From the sequence record PQ478073.1: a stretch of DNA of 64,000 nucleotides; one strand, given 5' to 3'. Positions 4,158 to 52,162 of this stretch are shown here, piece after piece; position 1 is the first letter of the stretch; each line of letters opens with the position of its first letter. This DNA comes from a phage. A model generated the notes under the pieces. It worked only from the letters and a program-made list of their open reading frames with translations, did not search any database and had not been told where the DNA came from. The position numbers and the translations under genes were made by a program.

Positions 4158-4165
4158 TATTTATA
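4158..4165 (-). promoter_or_regulatory. T4-type late promoter box TATAAATA (endolysin)
   Basis: Exact TATAAATA on minus strand 17 nt upstream of ATG. Confidence 0.5.
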
Positions 4166-4177
4166 GTGCTAAAATAT

Positions 4178-6841
4178 TTATTGACATGCCTCCAAACGAC
4201 GAGCCATTAACTCCGCACGGCGGGTGGTTTGGCGATACCAAGCAGAATTGCGGATTTGTGCCGCTGCTTGTTTATAATTACCTTTTGCCATTTCTGATAA
4301 CATAGTTTTAAATTTCAATACACCACCTTTACCCATCTGAAATACCATTTGGCATAGTACTTGTTGAGCAAGATAAGGAGTTTTCATGTTATATGAAGCA
4401 TAAATTGATTTGGCATCATAAATTGCTTTACTACTATCACGAACTAACATATCATTTGCTTGTTGTTCAGTTATTCCATCAGAGAAGTTTTCACCGCTAA
4501 CAATTAAGTGACCGTAACCAATAGTTGGATATCCACGACTATCTAAATAACGCCAGAACTTACCATTACGATAATACCCCTTTGCTTGTTGATATTGTAA
4601 TGTACCCTCATATTCTTTTAATTCAGAAATAAACTGAGCATCACCAGGAACAACTTTCCAATCTATGGCTGTTTTATCAACATTACCTATATTATAAGTT
4701 GGTTGCTCAACTGGCGTAGTTGAAACACCACTTCTTTGTGTTCTTCTTCGACGAGGAACATGTCGTGAACCACGTTGTGAATAACCTGTACCAATTGTTT
4801 TAATTTTTGTAGTAACTACTAATTCATCACTATCAACAGAAGGTTGCACTACTGCTTGAGGTGCAGATTGATTGGTTGCTTTTCCTGCAATTAATGTTTT
4901 ATTGGCTGCGTCAGAACCAGTACCAGTTTGAGATGCATAAAATAGACCCGGATCAACTGAACCGCTAAAACCAAGCACGTTAGCTGATGTAACACGTATT
5001 TCAAACTGTATAACACCATTTGCTTTACCAACAACTTGGCCTTTTTGAACAACATCTTTGTTTAATAAATCAGATTGAATATTATAAAATACAGATTTAT
5101 ATCCTGACTTATGTTGTATTAACAGTGCACCATTAGTAATTACTATTACACCACCATCGGGTGCAACTATGTCACCTTTACATTGTATTTCCCATCCAGA
5201 ACGATCTGACTTCCCACCACTTTGTGTTGGAACACCTTTCCCCCAATAACCATATTGGCGAATAGTACCACTACATGGCATGAACATATGTAAACCTTCA
5301 TATGTAATACTATATCCAGTCATCCCAGGGTCAGATGTCATTAAATCTTGAGATTGCACTTGTTCAGTTTCTGATGTATAGTTAACAAACTGAACAGCTT
5401 CAGTGTCTTGTGCTACGGGTAATTCTGGTGATACATCATTTGCTGGTTGTGGTTGTACTGGTGATTCACTAGAACCACTTCCACCACCTTGTCTTGGTGG
5501 TTCAACATAACTACCATGATTTTCAGCGTTAACCCATGCAGCAATATCATGAATGTGTTCATTAAGACCAGCAGATGGTGTTCTAAAGTTTGGTGCAGTA
5601 AATTCAGCAGTACCGCTATTACCACCACTATTAACTGTTAATGTTTGACCACCACCACTAATAATTGCTGATGATGATCCAATTAGGTTTGCAGATGTTG
5701 CGGCAGAAATAGAAGCATTTGAACCAGCCGTAATATCAGTACTGCTACCACTTTGCATACGTAATGATGCAGCAGTAACTAAACGAAGGTCTGCCCCAGA
5801 ATTAACAACAACTTGTCCACCAACTTTTGCATCAAGAGCACCAATTAGATCTAATTTAGTATTTGCACCAACTCGTGCATTGAAATCTTGTCCGGTTTCA
5901 ATATTATATGAACGTCCAGCAGTAATATTAATATCTTGACCAGCACGAATATTAATATTCTTATCACAGTGCATGTCAATATCACCTTCACCAGTGAATT
6001 TTATACGTGCAGTGCCATCACGGTTAATTAAAAGAACATCACCAGTAGCTTCTGATAAAAGAAGTTGTGCACCACTACGTGTTTTTATTACGACACCTTC
6101 ATTTTTACGAGAACCAACACGTGTATCGTTTACTGGGTTATTAAATTGTGTATCTTGATATCCATCTGGGTCTTGATCCCACGTTGGTGCTGTTAATTCC
6201 TCTTCAGTATATCCATCATCAATAATAAAACTATTACCACGTGGCGAAGACATACCATATACAGTACTGGTGGTTTGTCGAGTACTACTACGATTCGCCA
6301 ACCCAGCTTCTTCGTCATATAAAAGGTTTTGCTTTTTAAGACCTGCGATAATTGGAACGTTAGCATATTTGTCTTGCATATCGGTAGTGATAGTGTTACG
6401 ATCATAGTCAGTAACAGGAAGTGGCATATCAGTTCCACCATAATTACTTACTTCAGTTGCCATGCCTGGAACCATAGTATTCATACGCTGGTCATATACA
6501 CAACCAATCCAATATGCTTGGAATGTACGGGCTTGTGCAAAAATTACAACAACTGTACACCCTACGTCTGGTGGTACTGCCCAAAAACCGTATCCTTTTG
6601 GATATTGACCATATGCATCAGCACTTGGAATACCTGGTGTTTTACCAGCAAAAGGAGACATGTAAGATGCTTCTATCCATGATTCTTTTGAGTTTTTATC
6701 ACTTTGAGAACCTTGTATCCAAACTTTCAGTTTTCCTGATTTAGTTGGATCTCTGTTATCCATAACAGTTGCTAACTGCGGATAAGATGGGTCAAAACGA
6801 CCCAACTGCTGTTGTGCATACTTTTTACTTGTATCTGCCAT
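4178..6841 (-). CDS. baseplate central spike, gp5-like, with beta-helix repeats, degenerate M23-like region and C-terminal T4-lysozyme domain
   Basis: 887 aa; N-terminal gp5/VgrG OB-fold-like segment (GFWAVPPDVGCTVVVIF...YWIGCVYD), G/S/T/N-rich repeat region, C-terminal EYEGT...DSRGYPTIGYGH ~50% identical to adjacent endolysin. Confidence 0.75.
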   Translation of the reverse strand: MADTSKKYAQQQLGRFDPSYPQLATVMDNRDPTKSGKLKVWIQGSQSDKNSKESWIEASYMSPFAGKTPGIPSADAYGQYPKGYGFWAVPPDVGCTVVVIFAQARTFQAYWIGCVYDQRMNTMVPGMATEVSNYGGTDMPLPVTDYDRNTITTDMQDKYANVPIIAGLKKQNLLYDEEAGLANRSSTRQTTSTVYGMSSPRGNSFIIDDGYTEEELTAPTWDQDPDGYQDTQFNNPVNDTRVGSRKNEGVVIKTRSGAQLLLSEATGDVLLINRDGTARIKFTGEGDIDMHCDKNINIRAGQDINITAGRSYNIETGQDFNARVGANTKLDLIGALDAKVGGQVVVNSGADLRLVTAASLRMQSGSSTDITAGSNASISAATSANLIGSSSAIISGGGQTLTVNSGGNSGTAEFTAPNFRTPSAGLNEHIHDIAAWVNAENHGSYVEPPRQGGGSGSSESPVQPQPANDVSPELPVAQDTEAVQFVNYTSETEQVQSQDLMTSDPGMTGYSITYEGLHMFMPCSGTIRQYGYWGKGVPTQSGGKSDRSGWEIQCKGDIVAPDGGVIVITNGALLIQHKSGYKSVFYNIQSDLLNKDVVQKGQVVGKANGVIQFEIRVTSANVLGFSGSVDPGLFYASQTGTGSDAANKTLIAGKATNQSAPQAVVQPSVDSDELVVTTKIKTIGTGYSQRGSRHVPRRRRTQRSGVSTTPVEQPTYNIGNVDKTAIDWKVVPGDAQFISELKEYEGTLQYQQAKGYYRNGKFWRYLDSRGYPTIGYGHLIVSGENFSDGITEQQANDMLVRDSSKAIYDAKSIYASYNMKTPYLAQQVLCQMVFQMGKGGVLKFKTMLSEMAKGNYKQAAAQIRNSAWYRQTTRRAELMARRLEACQ

Positions 6842-10292: not shown

Positions 10293-11132
10293 ATGACAAA
10301 TAGACCAAAGCGTAAAAAGTATCTCAATAATGCTGATTTACTTCGTGAAATACAAAAAAGTAAAATTTCATATTGCTGGTTATTAGACAAATCATATAGT
10401 ATGTATGATTATATTGTTTTTCATGAGTCAGAAATTACTGCTGAGTTACTAGAAAAAGCTAAGGCAGCACGAATTAAACGACTGAACAATGAAATGCTTG
10501 ATAGTATTCGTGAAAAGGAAAATATGAGTGCTAAAAAAGCTAAAGAATATGCAGATGAACACAATTTAGTTATCACTGACGTTCCAATTGATGAAGTTGT
10601 TATTCGTGTTATTACAGATGAACATATTCCACCAGATACTAGAGTTAACTTTGAACCATTCAAGCATTATATTGTAGATAATGAAGGTATTCTCTATGAA
10701 GTTTGTCGTTCTCACTGGAAAGGCGACCTTGAAACTGGTGAATTCAGTACTGTTCATGGTAAAATTACAAATGAACTTGGGAAGATGTTCATTAAACTTG
10801 CAGAGGAAATCTCACACAAATCTAATTACAGAAACTATACATACTTAGATGAAATGATGGGTGATGCAAGAATACAATTAGTTAAAAACGCACTTCTCTT
10901 TAAAGAGAGCATTCTTTATAAAAAAGATAAACCAGCAGTTCAGCTAAATCCTTTCTCTTACTATACATCATTCGTAAACAATAGTTTTCGTTCTATATTG
11001 AATAGTGAGAAAAATGTTCGAAATATACGTGATGATTTACTTGAAATGCATGGCTTTACGCCATCACATACACGTCAAATTGAAATTGAATTGAACATGA
11101 TTGAAAGGAAAAATGAAGATGGCTCTGTTTGA
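10293..11132 (+). CDS. 55: late-transcription sigma factor, gp55-like
   Basis: KKYLNNADLLREIQ and NPFSYYTSFVNNSFRSILNSEKNVRNI match recalled T4 gp55 ([39 protein letters not shown]); ~100 aa longer than T4 gp55. Confidence 0.65.
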   Translation: MTNRPKRKKYLNNADLLREIQKSKISYCWLLDKSYSMYDYIVFHESEITAELLEKAKAARIKRLNNEMLDSIREKENMSAKKAKEYADEHNLVITDVPIDEVVIRVITDEHIPPDTRVNFEPFKHYIVDNEGILYEVCRSHWKGDLETGEFSTVHGKITNELGKMFIKLAEEISHKSNYRNYTYLDEMMGDARIQLVKNALLFKESILYKKDKPAVQLNPFSYYTSFVNNSFRSILNSEKNVRNIRDDLLEMHGFTPSHTRQIEIELNMIERKNEDGSV

Positions 11133-16732: not shown

Positions 16733-16740
16733 TATTTATA
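16733..16740 (-). promoter_or_regulatory. late promoter box TATAAATA (zinc-ribbon late gene)
   Basis: Exact TATAAATA on minus strand 35 nt upstream of ATG at 16698. Confidence 0.5.
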
Positions 16741-16828
16741 AGACTAAAAAAGATTAAATTAAACTAATTTTTATATTCTCTATAGTTTCATAAATATTTC
16801 TATAATACATCTATTAAAAGGGAATGTT

Positions 16829-25275: not shown

Positions 25276-26373
25276 ATGCCAAACGTAAGTATCAACAAAG
25301 AAGAGTTTATCAGCAAAATGACTGCTAAGTATGGTGAATTTGATTTCAGTACTTTAGTATTCAAAGCAAGTAAGACAACAGTGAAATGTAACAAGTGTGG
25401 AAAAGAAAACACCAAACCTGCACTTCGTCACATTGCATGTACATGTGCATCATGTTATTCAAACATGTCACAACGTTCAAACAACGACACATTCATCAGT
25501 ACTATAGAAACTAAATTTGGAAAAGATAAATTCAAATTTGATAAACTAAATTACACTAATGCTATATCAAAAGTAACAATTTTCTGCACAGATGAAGATC
25601 ACAATGATTACTTTGAAATTACACCCAATAAATTTCTTTCTGGTAAAGGATGCCCCGTATGTAATAAAAATGAAGCATACAGTACTGAAGAGTTCAAAGA
25701 AAAAGTAAAAGATAATTATGGTGATTTATTGGATTTAACTAACACGGTGTATGTAAATCAAAAAACTAAAGTAACTGTGTATTGTAACGCAGGTAATCAT
25801 GAATGGACAGTTGATCCAAAAACTTTACTTGTTGGTAAGACTGGATGTGGTACATGCTCCGGTAAAGGCGGTCGAAGTACTGAACGTTTCATTGAACTTG
25901 TGTCGCCTATCCATAACCATAAGTATGATTATAGCTTGGTGGATTACAAGACTAGTGATGAACATGTGGATATTATTTGTCCTGAACATGGTGTCTTTAA
26001 ACAAATACCCAAATCTCATATGGCAGGAAGAGGATGTCCATCATGTGGTGAGTATGGTTATCAACCATCAAAGCCTGGATATTTCTATGTACAAAAACTA
26101 TCTAATAACTCAAAAGTCGTTTACAAATACGGAATTACCGGAGACATGAAGAGACGAATTCATGAACAAAGTCGCAATTCTGAGTTCGAGCATGAATTAC
26201 TGGTAGAACGTTACTTTGAGGATGGTAATAAACCATTATTATTGGAAAAGTTTATCAAGCAATACATTGAAAGTGGTGTTGTAAGTACTGAAGAGTTACC
26301 GTCAGGATTTACTGAAACATTTGATGCTAAGTATCTTGAAAGTGTTTTAGAAATTGTAAATACTTTTAAGTAA
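25276..26373 (+). CDS. zinc-ribbon repeat protein with C-terminal T5orf172 (GIY-YIG-like) domain
   Basis: Five CxxC modules (CNKCG, GCPVCN, GCGTCS, GCPSCG...) then GYFYV...VYKYGIT...RR; perfect TTGACA-17-TATAAT upstream. Confidence 0.55.
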   Translation: MPNVSINKEEFISKMTAKYGEFDFSTLVFKASKTTVKCNKCGKENTKPALRHIACTCASCYSNMSQRSNNDTFISTIETKFGKDKFKFDKLNYTNAISKVTIFCTDEDHNDYFEITPNKFLSGKGCPVCNKNEAYSTEEFKEKVKDNYGDLLDLTNTVYVNQKTKVTVYCNAGNHEWTVDPKTLLVGKTGCGTCSGKGGRSTERFIELVSPIHNHKYDYSLVDYKTSDEHVDIICPEHGVFKQIPKSHMAGRGCPSCGEYGYQPSKPGYFYVQKLSNNSKVVYKYGITGDMKRRIHEQSRNSEFEHELLVERYFEDGNKPLLLEKFIKQYIESGVVSTEELPSGFTETFDAKYLESVLEIVNTFK

Positions 26374-26396
26374 ACAATCTAAAGGAGTTGACACGG

Positions 26397-26747
26397 ATGT
26401 TAACTGTATACAAATTTAACAAAGAAGAGTACTTAAAGAGTCAGTACTCAAATATAGAAATAAATGTTCCTTATGGTACGTTAGTTGGATATGATGAAGC
26501 CACTGAAACATTGTATTATAATGATGATAGATTGGATTATAGTTTAGATTCATTCATTGAAGATATACTTAATACACATACTGAAGATATGTTGTATGAA
26601 GAATACATAGACCATTATAGAGAACGTATGTCGGTGCTGCATTCTGATGCTCCTGTACTAAACATAGCACAAGAACCATCGGAATTTCAGCCACATAATC
26701 CTTTTCAACGTTTAATTGATATTGGTTTAAAATTCACTATTAGTTGA
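26397..26747 (+). CDS. hypothetical acidic protein
   Basis: AAAGGAG RBS 9 nt upstream of ATG at 26397. Confidence 0.5.
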   Translation: MLTVYKFNKEEYLKSQYSNIEINVPYGTLVGYDEATETLYYNDDRLDYSLDSFIEDILNTHTEDMLYEEYIDHYRERMSVLHSDAPVLNIAQEPSEFQPHNPFQRLIDIGLKFTIS

Positions 26748-26786
26748 TAGATAAATATCTCCATATTAATGATGGAGATTGAATCT

Positions 26787-27095
26787 ATGTCACAGATATG
26801 TTATGTTATAATAAACTCTGCATGGCCTGACTATGTTAAGATTGGTTTCACTTCTAAATCTGAAATGACAGAGCGTTTGAGAACGTATCAGACAGCTACC
26901 CCGTTTCGTGATTTTGAAGTTTATCATGAAGTTCACTTTGAAGACGCACGTTTAGCTGAAAAAGAGATACATAAAAGGCTTAAACAAATGAATGCAACTA
27001 GACAACCAAACACAGAGTGGTTTAAAATGTCTAAAAAGATAGCAGCAAACATCATTGATTCTGTGTGGGATGATATGGATAACGACTTGCTATAG
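26787..27095 (+). CDS. T5orf172-domain protein (GIY-YIG-like)
   Basis: CYVIINSAWPDYVKIGFT...ERLRTY...EWF. Confidence 0.55.
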   Translation: MSQICYVIINSAWPDYVKIGFTSKSEMTERLRTYQTATPFRDFEVYHEVHFEDARLAEKEIHKRLKQMNATRQPNTEWFKMSKKIAANIIDSVWDDMDNDLL

Positions 27096-36674: not shown

Positions 36675-36797
36675 GAAAATCTCCTTGTCAAATTTTGTGC
36701 AGGTATATCCTGCTTAAAGTTATTTATCAAAAAATATCACTAGCATTTAAATTTACTGAGATATTTAATGAATTTCTATGATATTATTTATCAAATC

Positions 36798-49819: not shown

Positions 49820-50145
49820 ATGGAAAAAGTATATATAATAAAATACCAGAAGGGTATGTACCTGTACCTAAAGAACAAAAATCAAAACAAATATCTCTAC
49901 TTAGACAAGGATCTATTACTGAAATAACTTTAGATGGTAAAACATTTCAAGTTCATGATCCTGCTCGTATTGAAAAAATTATTTCTTTGGTAGAAAGACA
50001 CGAAGAACGCTTTTTCAGTTTAAGTCAAGAATTGGCAAAGACAAAACAAAATTGTAGATTATTAGAGAATCAAATATCAACTTTGACTAATACAGTTAAA
50101 CAGTTACAGGAGCAAATAAAAAATGCAGGATTCGACCGATTCTAA
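49816..50145 (+). CDS. hypothetical protein
   Basis: 109-aa ORF, start overlaps upstream stop. Confidence 0.5.
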   Translation: MNGKSIYNKIPEGYVPVPKEQKSKQISLLRQGSITEITLDGKTFQVHDPARIEKIISLVERHEERFFSLSQELAKTKQNCRLLENQISTLTNTVKQLQEQIKNAGFDRF

Positions 50146-50761
50146 ACATTATAGAAAAGCCCGAACTGATATTGACATTGACTTCAAGGATAGTAAAAGC
50201 GTAATCGCTAAACTTCCATGTGTGCGAAGTACTGAAAAAATTACGGAGGATGGTTTAATCCCCCATAATAGTGGTGTTCATTTTGATAATATACCTATTG
50301 ATCCAATCACTGGATTGGCAAGTATACAATATAAAGAAGCTGAAAGGTTAGGGTATCAAAAAGTTGATATTCTTTCACAGTCAGCTTACATGTATGTTCG
50401 TGATAGAGAGCATTTAAAAGAACTAATGAATCAGGAACCAAATTGGGATCTATTGTTAGAACCCGAAATTGTAGAACATCTATCGCAAATTAAAAAACAT
50501 GTAACTTTATTAAATGTATGGAAGCCTAAATCTATAGACGAACTAGCAATGTTTATTGCAATGATTCGCCCAGGAAAAAGGCAGTGCCAAAGTATGAACA
50601 CATGGGACGAAGTTAAAGCTACCATATGGGATTATAGTACTATAGGCACTGACCAAGCAGGAAATAAATTACGATATTTCAAAAAGCCACATGCTTACGC
50701 ATATAGCTTAATGATTGTTGTACAACTAAATGCTTTAGTTGAACATCTTACTTCTTCTTAA
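50123..50761 (+). CDS. hypothetical protein
   Basis: 212-aa ORF. Confidence 0.5.
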   Translation: MQDSTDSKHYRKARTDIDIDFKDSKSVIAKLPCVRSTEKITEDGLIPHNSGVHFDNIPIDPITGLASIQYKEAERLGYQKVDILSQSAYMYVRDREHLKELMNQEPNWDLLLEPEIVEHLSQIKKHVTLLNVWKPKSIDELAMFIAMIRPGKRQCQSMNTWDEVKATIWDYSTIGTDQAGNKLRYFKKPHAYAYSLMIVVQLNALVEHLTSS

Positions 50762-51101
50762 GAGCCACATTACGACGCTTGATGCGTTTCTGTGGCAAAT
50801 TGCTTAAAGAAACTACTGGACCACATACGAAATTCACCGACGGTGTATCGAATCTCTGTGTGTACGGTTCAAATTTCTCCATCTCTTCTTGAAAGAATAG
50901 ACAAACTGGAATGGTTCTATTACTTTGCCACCACCAATCGTGTGCTATACCTAACAATTCGTCTTGCATTGAATCATCCATATCATCGAAACAGTAAAGA
51001 GTTGTATACTGTTTGCTTTTGATTTTGATGATACCAACAAACGTTTTACCATCATACTGGATTACAGTAATGAATGGTGGAATAGTGTTATATTGATTCA
51101 T
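50748..51101 (-). CDS. hypothetical protein (lone minus-strand gene)
   Basis: 117-aa ORF diverging from 51159 gene across a palindromic TATAAATT element. Confidence 0.45.
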   Translation of the reverse strand: MNQYNTIPPFITVIQYDGKTFVGIIKIKSKQYTTLYCFDDMDDSMQDELLGIAHDWWWQSNRTIPVCLFFQEEMEKFEPYTQRFDTPSVNFVCGPVVSLSNLPQKRIKRRNVALKKK

Positions 51102-51158
51102 ATTAGTTCCATAAATATTAGTATAAATTTATACCTATTATTTATGGAAGGAAAAACT

Positions 51159-52136
51159 ATGGCTCATCACGGCGTGTTTATGTACCCTTATAATCAGGAA
51201 GTATCATTGGGCAATTTTAATATGCCATATAGCAATGAAAAACTAACTATATATAGAGGGGCAAATAATAATTTATCTTTTACTGTTCACAACGCTGATG
51301 GAAAATATACTTTATTGAAAGATAATGAATATCTTACATTTATGATTTTTGATGCAAGAAATAATACTAAACTATTTGATGTTGTATTAGAAAAACAAGA
51401 ACCCAGTTGGTTATCAGAAAGTGGACAAGCAAGACAAACATTAGGAAATAAAAAGAAAGTATATTATGGATGTATTGTTCCAGCAGGAGTTATTCAAGAT
51501 ACCAGTCCTGGTTCAAAATATAGATGGAGCATTACTAAAGTAACAATGGATGGTTCACTTATAGAACCAACACAATATCTATACACAGGGATGAACTTTG
51601 AGGCATCAGCAGAGCTAATAATTTCAGACCAAGCAGCACCTGTATTTGTCCCCAGTACTGAAATATCAGTTAATAAAAATCCAGCATGGACAACTATAAA
51701 GCGTTTATATCATGAACCAATTGGAAATGGTATGATTGGTGAATATGATATTCTCGCATCAACTCCACTACCAGCACAAATGCAGTTTGGATTAGTAGAT
51801 GGATTAAGTAGTATTGCAATCTATTTTGATAAATTTATTGGTAGAATACAGCTACAAGGGTGCTTGTGTAACAACGTACCTAATGATAATGAAAACTATA
51901 AATGGTTTATTATTAAATTAGATGGAAAGGATTATATTGAAAATGGAATTGATTCAGAAGGTTTTCCAAAAGAACTTGACGGAATACAAGCATTTAATTT
52001 TAAAGGAAATTATATGTGGTTACGTTTGGTGGTTGCTATTCATCCCAAAATTGTTCCAGTACCATATGACTATGCTGCTGTCCGAAAAGTGTATGACCCT
52101 TTCCTAACAGTACCTAAAATTTTGATACGTAGATGA
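51159..52136 (+). CDS. hypothetical late protein
   Basis: GGAAGGA RBS; TATAAATT box at 51122-51129. Confidence 0.5.
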   Translation: MAHHGVFMYPYNQEVSLGNFNMPYSNEKLTIYRGANNNLSFTVHNADGKYTLLKDNEYLTFMIFDARNNTKLFDVVLEKQEPSWLSESGQARQTLGNKKKVYYGCIVPAGVIQDTSPGSKYRWSITKVTMDGSLIEPTQYLYTGMNFEASAELIISDQAAPVFVPSTEISVNKNPAWTTIKRLYHEPIGNGMIGEYDILASTPLPAQMQFGLVDGLSSIAIYFDKFIGRIQLQGCLCNNVPNDNENYKWFIIKLDGKDYIENGIDSEGFPKELDGIQAFNFKGNYMWLRLVVAIHPKIVPVPYDYAAVRKVYDPFLTVPKILIRR

Positions 52137-52162
52137 GACAAAACTAGAAGGTGTGCTATAAT
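52134..52162 (+). promoter_or_regulatory. early/middle promoter, TGAGACA family (primase)
   Basis: TGAGAC-17-TGCTATAAT; TGA doubles as stop codon of upstream gene. Confidence 0.5.

Follow-up and report, generated by a model that had tools for sequence, protein, structure and literature searches.

Interlocked candidate late promoters of T4 type between two divergent genes of an Asteriusvirus jumbo phage

The window analyzed here, 64,000 nucleotides (nt) of sequence record PQ478073.1, belongs to an Asteriusvirus jumbo coliphage, a 350-kilobase (kb) myovirus of the PBECO4/121Q/phAPEC6 group. At 51107-51149 it carries a near-palindrome in the gap between two divergent genes, which we call g17 and g18 following 121Q numbering (gp17 and gp18). 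How are these two genes transcribed, and which part of the palindrome matters for it? An earlier note on this DNA had read the center of the palindrome as a late box on both strands, so that both genes would be late genes embedded among early ones. We propose instead, with a probability of about 75%, that two T4-type late promoters, whose activity is predicted, interlock within the gap, and that the late boxes are likely the outer ATAAATA arms and not the central TATAAATT. Such a locus is an unusually compact and well-conserved example of a promoter class already known rather than a new mechanism, and its plus-strand half has already been predicted in a related phage. What is new, though of modest weight, is that the two boxes cross, that they do so only once in the genome, and that this layout is conserved.

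Anatomy of the near-palindrome

All the elements first described at this site were located exactly: CCATAAATA at 51109-51117, a 21-nt spacer, TATTTATGG at 51139-51147, and the central palindrome TATAAATTTATA at 51122-51133. The symmetry is wider than was then given. The arms TTCCATAAATA and TATTTATGGAA are perfect over 11 nt and match at 14 of 15 positions over 51107-51121 and 51135-51149, and the inner palindrome is GTATAAATTTATAC (51121-51134). Arms and inner palindrome together form a 43-nt near-palindrome, with the two halves offset by one base, inside a 57-nt intergenic gap ahead of the plus-strand ATG at 51159.

Read from left to right, the near-palindrome consists of a ribosome-binding site, a box, a spacer with both predicted start sites, a second box, and a second ribosome-binding site. 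The g17 ribosome-binding site is a minus-strand GGAA (51107-51110), 5 nt before ATG 51101, and makes up the outermost part of the left arm; it is retained in relatives as GGAAG or GGGAG. Next to it lies the predicted plus-strand late box, ATAAATA at 51111-51117, which points toward g18 and ends 42 nt before ATG 51159. The predicted minus-strand box, ATAAATA at 51139-51145, points toward g17, ends 38 nt before ATG 51101, and abuts the g18 ribosome-binding site, GGAAGGA on the plus strand (51146-51152), 6 nt before ATG 51159. From their orientation and their distances to the two ATGs, each box would serve the gene on the far side. The TTCC/GGAA extension of the arms corresponds to the two ribosome-binding sites, and most of the symmetry follows from two identical boxes having a GGA-type ribosome-binding site on either side.

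Placement of ATAAATA in the window and genome

The window contains 22 copies of ATAAATA, 20 of them outside coding sequence, a count that takes into account the baseplate gene truncated at the left edge and that falls to 17 under a stricter test scoring boxes that overlap a neighboring stop codon as coding. Nineteen of the 20 noncoding copies face a start codon at 17-65 nt; the exception, at 111 nt, is the outer copy of a tandem pair. Among all 7-mers in the window, ATAAATA ranked first for promoter-like placement. Genome-wide counts were made on 350 kb of the unannotated ECO103 4-12-1 genome (99.8% identical), with the last 2 kb of the record excluded and crude open reading frame calls. Here ATAAATA occurs 52 times, with 30 copies intergenic and 28 of those 30 co-oriented with a start codon 17-65 nt away. 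The promoter-like background for A/T-only intergenic 7-mers is 31%, which gives a binomial P of 1e-12. The median distance from box to start codon is 37 nt genome-wide, close to the distances of both boxes at the locus.

The same word is avoided in coding DNA, with 22 copies in 350 kb vs 68-297 for its A/T one-mismatch neighbors, and in the window it is rarer than in 100 of 100 shuffles (22 vs 36.9 +/- 6.5). The avoidance suggests that stray late promoters are selected against. The variants CTAAATA, GTAAATA, TTAAATA, and ATGAATA also had high promoter-like fractions.

Genes following the window's boxes mostly encode virion proteins, including baseplate wedge and hub, portal-proximal, head protease, major head, and tail fiber proteins. 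Endonuclease VII and a few unannotated genes make up the rest, and no replication gene lies downstream of an ATAAATA box in the window. A position matrix from the 28 genome-wide sites showed only T-richness upstream and A/T-richness downstream, with no conserved -35 element. The strongest bias outside the box is an A 6 nt downstream (20 of 28 sites), which is the +1 position in T4.

These placement statistics speak against the central palindrome as the promoter. On that reading, the late boxes would be the TATAAATT copies that TATAAATTTATA contains, one per strand, and the outer arms would have no role of their own. Its geometry is possible, as starts would fall at about 51135 (plus) and 51120 (minus), each upstream of its ribosome-binding site, and TATAAATT is one mismatch from the T4 consensus. 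Yet the genome has 242 copies of ATAAATT, of which 15 are intergenic and only 4 promoter-like, below the 31% background, and two of those four are at this very site. Matches to TATAAATT in the window are mostly coding or antisense. Its poor conservation, described below, points the same way, with the central palindrome lost or broken in relatives that keep the gene pair and outer boxes. We consider the central reading highly improbable. The claim that the gap carries late boxes for both divergent genes can be kept as a prediction, with the outer arms fitting in place of the center.

Conservation across relatives

The 2.4 kb around the locus is 100% identical in Escherichia phages SHEFM2K and BAU.Micro_ELP-22 and at least 98.6% identical in PBECO4, phAPEC6, G17, and 121Q. 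We compared the locus in 12 relatives: 121Q, ph0011, TH47, A4, JNE01, EJP2, Hallingskeid, RaK2, CBB, Yen9-03, Munch, and Kae01. TH47 is unannotated and its gene bounds were read from the sequence, while the other 11 have annotated bounds. The coding DNA of the more distant members of this set is ~70% identical to the window. All 12 retained the three-gene arrangement of polymerase fragment, g17, and g18, and both boxes are identical at 7/7 positions in the 11 annotated relatives, TH47, and Xanthomonas phage XaC1. The spacer between the boxes differs among these phages in sequence and, at 19-25 nt, in length. When nine representatives were aligned with MAFFT, no stretch of consecutive invariant columns appeared in the gap outside the two boxes.

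The central palindrome has a narrower distribution. It is present only in the close Asteriusvirus relatives 121Q, ph0011, A4, and TH47, is broken in JNE01 by a 1-nt insertion, and is absent from RaK2, CBB, Yen9-03, Munch, Kae01, XaC1, EJP2, and Hallingskeid, of which EJP2 is filed under Asteriusvirus in its record. On the sequences compared, the added central symmetry is lineage-specific.

More distant phages keep the boxes in changed form. XaC1 and Atu_ph07 have crossing boxes, the latter with a 12-nt spacer, and Phosso retains the crossing pair as CTAAATA and ATAAATA. PA5oct has both boxes back to back, and in SCTP-2 there were no boxes between the annotated starts. The trio of polymerase fragment, opposite-strand g17 homologue, and virion protein is itself kept in very distant Pseudomonas, Agrobacterium, Sinorhizobium, and Salicola jumbo phages. 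In PA5oct (1179-1240 of the sequence compared) the virion-gene box ends only 5 nt before the annotated ATG, so that either the mRNA has no leader or the start is wrongly annotated.

Three alternatives can be weighed against this pattern. The first is that the palindrome arose by chance in AT-rich spacer DNA and has no function: intergenic DNA is 68% A+T and its ATAAATA count equals the expectation from composition. The boxes are invariant in the Enterobacterales-infecting relatives and XaC1 even though the spacer diverges, and their orientation and distance match the genome-wide pattern. The 57-nt gap, computed as single-stranded DNA, has a folding energy of -8.7 kcal/mol (z = -3.35), a value that just 1 of 200 shuffled sequences reached. 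Chance therefore has a next to negligible probability here.

The same hairpin, formed by a 43-nt near-perfect palindrome, could be taken as a sign of an operator for a dimeric regulator, possibly through g17 autoregulation, or of a cruciform site, and the basic tail and small barrel of g17 are reminiscent of nucleic-acid binders. The variable length of the spacer argues against a fixed dimeric operator, and we regard this explanation as very doubtful.

In the third alternative only one arm, probably the plus-strand box ahead of the virion gene, acts as a promoter, with the other arm conserved as an A/U-rich leader element next to the ribosome-binding site of the opposite mRNA and g17 expressed from elsewhere or at another time. 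Several observations favor it. The complement of each box, UAUUUAU, adjoins the opposite gene's ribosome-binding site on its 5' side; an independent published prediction exists only for the plus-strand site; and g17 is not a known virion protein. The minus-strand arm, however, matches the genome-wide box at 7/7 positions, lies at a typical distance from its start codon, and is as invariant as its partner in the Enterobacterales-infecting relatives and XaC1. A scan of the gap found no sigma-70-like hexamer pair that could serve g17 in its place, and the box of the PA5oct g17 homologue has a different position, away from the other gene's ribosome-binding site. We thus judge a single functional arm unlikely and favor two promoters. 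In the Yen9-03 record, a -10/-35 annotation overlaps the minus-strand box.

Predicted arrangement of the two promoters

Each promoter would consist of a 7-bp ATAAATA without a -35 element, presumably read by host RNA polymerase with the phage's gp55-like sigma factor. The gp55-like sigma gene (10293-11132, plus strand), which is also supported by annotation, matched phrog_12791 at 3e-154 and phrog_234 at 8e-18, and its product is the presumed reader of ATAAATA. The plus-strand box, set against the start of the minus-strand gene, would fire rightward into g18, and the minus-strand box, set against the g18 ribosome-binding site, would fire leftward into g17. With T4 geometry, in which transcription starts 6 nt past the box, the starts are predicted at about 51123 (an A) on the plus strand and at 51132-51134 on the minus strand, and the two transcripts would therefore share ~11 complementary nt at their 5' ends. 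The central palindrome spans the predicted melting and initiation zone of both promoters along with this transcript overlap. The predicted leaders are 36 nt (g18) and ~32 nt (g17), both computed to be unstructured. As a candidate RNA hairpin or terminator the palindrome was rejected, as each predicted leader includes just one half and the palindrome is not followed by a U run.

In this layout each box would fall at about +17 to +23 of the opposite promoter, within its first 25 transcribed bases. Such spacing falls inside the normal footprint of RNA polymerase, so one DNA copy probably holds polymerase at one promoter only, and simultaneous occupancy of both is unlikely. On the g17 side, the arrangement would amount to a single-gene late unit, with its own promoter, a gene of 117 amino acids (aa), and a terminator within the neighboring polymerase-fragment gene.

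The crossing layout may even be selected for itself, as a mutually exclusive two-way late switch, which we think quite unlikely. If it were so, and if the orientation of the DNA-loaded sliding clamp selected the direction of the late promoters activated, as it does in T4, each genome copy would express g17 or g18 according to the strand of the nick or fork, and the ratio of the two products would be tied to replication. In that case g17 would serve g18 specifically as a late partner, perhaps in assembly or by binding nucleic acid. g17 is a core gene whose position is shared by coliphages and by jumbo phages of Pseudomonas, Agrobacterium, and Salicola.

The direct evidence consists of the sequence anatomy, the placement of boxes across the genome, their conservation, a sigma gene in the window, and the match to virion mass spectrometry; that the promoters are active, where they start, that they act late, and that they exclude each other is what we infer from it. 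Several points weigh against the proposal. ATAAATA is not enriched in intergenic DNA, where the 30 observed copies compare with 27.5 +/- 5.1 expected from base composition. Since the count equals this expectation, the case rests on orientation, position, coding avoidance, and conservation, and not on enrichment. The relatives are also kin to one another, so the invariance of the boxes reflects fewer independent events than the number of genomes. The g17 product was not detected in virions, and consequently nothing independent marks g17 as late. In the literature searched we found no RNA sequencing (RNA-seq) or 5'-end mapping for any Asteriusvirus. Finally, the authors of the CBB genome report found no homologues of the T4 co-activator gp33 or the sliding clamp gp45 in CBB (PMC5259590), and activation may accordingly differ from that in T4; Iyer et al. 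reported a gp33 orthologue for this phage group.

Comparison with known systems

T4 late promoters carry TATAAATA at -13 to -6, read by gp55 together with gp33 and the gp45 sliding clamp (Geiduschek and Kassavetis 2010, PMC2988020). The sites described here resemble them in having an A/T box roughly one helical turn upstream of the predicted start, no -35 element, and an A/T-rich downstream region. Both sites at the locus read CATAAATA, identical to the T4 box at 7 of 8 positions. Further likenesses are the phage-encoded gp55-like sigma factor, the location of boxes before virion genes, and the freedom of late units to oppose the early and middle direction. Early and middle transcripts of T4 run one way while its late transcripts run either way (PMC2988020), and a lone opposite-strand late gene therefore fits the habit of the family. 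The sites differ from those of T4 in that the box is 7 bp long, with the equivalent of T4 position -13 unconserved (A7 C5 G6 T10) and a C at both locus sites. The sigma factor differs in size as well, at 279 aa here. T4 gp55 has ~185 aa.

The ATAAATA motif was predicted before in CBB and GAP32 as a late motif upstream of structural genes and was likened to TATAAATA (Buttimer et al. 2017, PMC5259590). The CBB ortholog of the plus-strand site is Porf_289, ATAAATATTGTATA (PMC5259590, Table S7). Because that analysis covered only the regions upstream of structural genes, the minus-strand partner before CBB_288, the crossing layout, and its conservation went unreported (PMC5259590).

The crossing pair is unique in the 350 kb, and the two other divergent late pairs of the genome are back to back (16733-16739/16790-16796 in the window; 163204/163239 in ECO103 4-12-1). 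Like the locus, these comprise two ATAAATA boxes serving divergent genes, in their case virion genes; unlike the locus, their boxes sit on the side of their own gene, 28-50 nt apart, and do not cross. The window pair has its minus-strand box at 16733-16739 and its plus-strand box at 16790-16796, between divergent baseplate-hub and virion-protein genes, and gives an internal contrast to the crossing pair.

Another system with opposed promoters is pR/pL of coliphage 186, in which face-to-face promoters give overlapping transcripts with probable exclusion or interference. Unlike pR/pL, both promoters here would be of the late class, with predicted starts ~10 bp apart, divergent genes, and no lysis-lysogeny switch, and interference between them is expected from their layout. 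The interlocked pair may offer a natural case for interference between two minimal promoters of -10 type only.

The analysis corrects which part of the palindrome matters and yields a testable transcription map of two predicted starts, two leaders, and one terminator, for one of very few opposite-strand genes in a 350-kb phage without experimental studies of regulation. The genome-wide evidence strengthens the case for a 7-bp T4-like late box in jumbo phages of the RaK2/121Q type, and such a box helps assign many unannotated jumbo-phage genes to time classes. The understanding of late transcription itself is unchanged.

The divergent genes and their surroundings

g18. The plus-strand gene (51159-52136; 121Q gp18, phAPEC6 gp192c, CBB_289) encodes a virion protein of 325 aa and 36.9 kDa, found in phAPEC6 virions as gp192c by mass spectrometry (7 peptides) and annotated in 121Q as a virion structural protein. 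Its model has two beta-sandwich domains, which weakly resemble baseplate and fiber proteins of phages. In the 121Q RefSeq entry, gp18 begins at a TTG (51207 in the window) and not at ATG 51159, the start that has the ribosome-binding site GGAAGGA before it. The g18 orthologues of Atu_ph07 and Phosso also appear to be annotated ~100 nt short, with a conserved MGSVILY start upstream.

g17. The minus-strand gene (50748-51101; 121Q gp17, phAPEC6 gp193, CBB_288) encodes 117 aa (13.9 kDa, isoelectric point 8.4) and matched the profile phrog_11637 at 1e-57; in 121Q its product is annotated as hypothetical. Its homologues number 50; an alignment of 30 sequences had 24 invariant columns, and all of the annotated relatives checked carry the gene in their annotation. 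The structural model combines a small beta-barrel with helices and a disordered tail, in which the motif KRIKRRN is invariant. Many residues of the wider C-terminal motif SLSDLP.KRIKRRN..LKKK (50748-50800), predicted to be disordered, are invariant in the 30 aligned homologues. This motif could be a docking or nucleic-acid-binding tail. A role for g17 as the T4 gp33 co-activator was considered, and similarity to gp33 was found in neither sequence nor fold.

Terminator. A probable intrinsic terminator of g17 lies at 50682-50709 on the minus strand, with an 11-bp stem, a GUAA loop, and U5, and has an ARNOLD call in the G17 record; a simple terminator scanner missed it. It is situated 39-67 nt past the stop codon, inside the C-terminal coding part of the convergent plus-strand gene 50123-50761. 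The RNA of 50672-50750 (minus strand) folds with z = -6.05. The hairpin was present in most of 11 relatives folded, with covariation between G-C and A-U at synonymous third positions, a conservation that the conserved coding sequence around it could also explain. A second strong hairpin without a U run occurs at 50719-50745, right past the g17 stop codon.

Surrounding genes. The convergent gene encodes a DnaE-like polymerase fragment (gp16), and a primase and a DnaB-like helicase are also neighbors. g17 is, as the earlier note had it, the sole minus-strand gene between 36.9 and 62.8 kb. The description of this region as a replication block holds in part: replication genes are present, but ~10 genes there are annotated as virion structural proteins, and the block is not purely one of replication. 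As for the view of g17 and g18 as late genes embedded among early ones, neighboring replication genes do use a different promoter type, with an extended -10 GTGCTATAAT.

Other boxes and a second promoter class

Paired same-strand boxes 17-64 nt apart, at 36721-36727 and 36785-36791 and at 4158-4164 and 4175-4181 (all minus strand), precede two genes and are possible tandem late promoters. Between the major head gene and the tail-fiber gene, 25276-27095 contains open reading frames with endonuclease- or homing-endonuclease-like matches. One of them, 26787-27095, has weak matches to phrog_681 and phrog_18411 and is flanked by late boxes at 26751 and 27098.

A second promoter class has an extended -10 of the form (G)TGCTATAAT or TGTGATATAAT, found at 52152-52162 (before the primase gene) and at ~36830, ~42120, ~47300, and ~58548. 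The extended -10 motif precedes plus-strand replication and nuclease genes, among them those for exonuclease, SSB, and primase. Genome-wide, TGnTATAAT has 94 copies, of which 32 are intergenic and 24 promoter-like.

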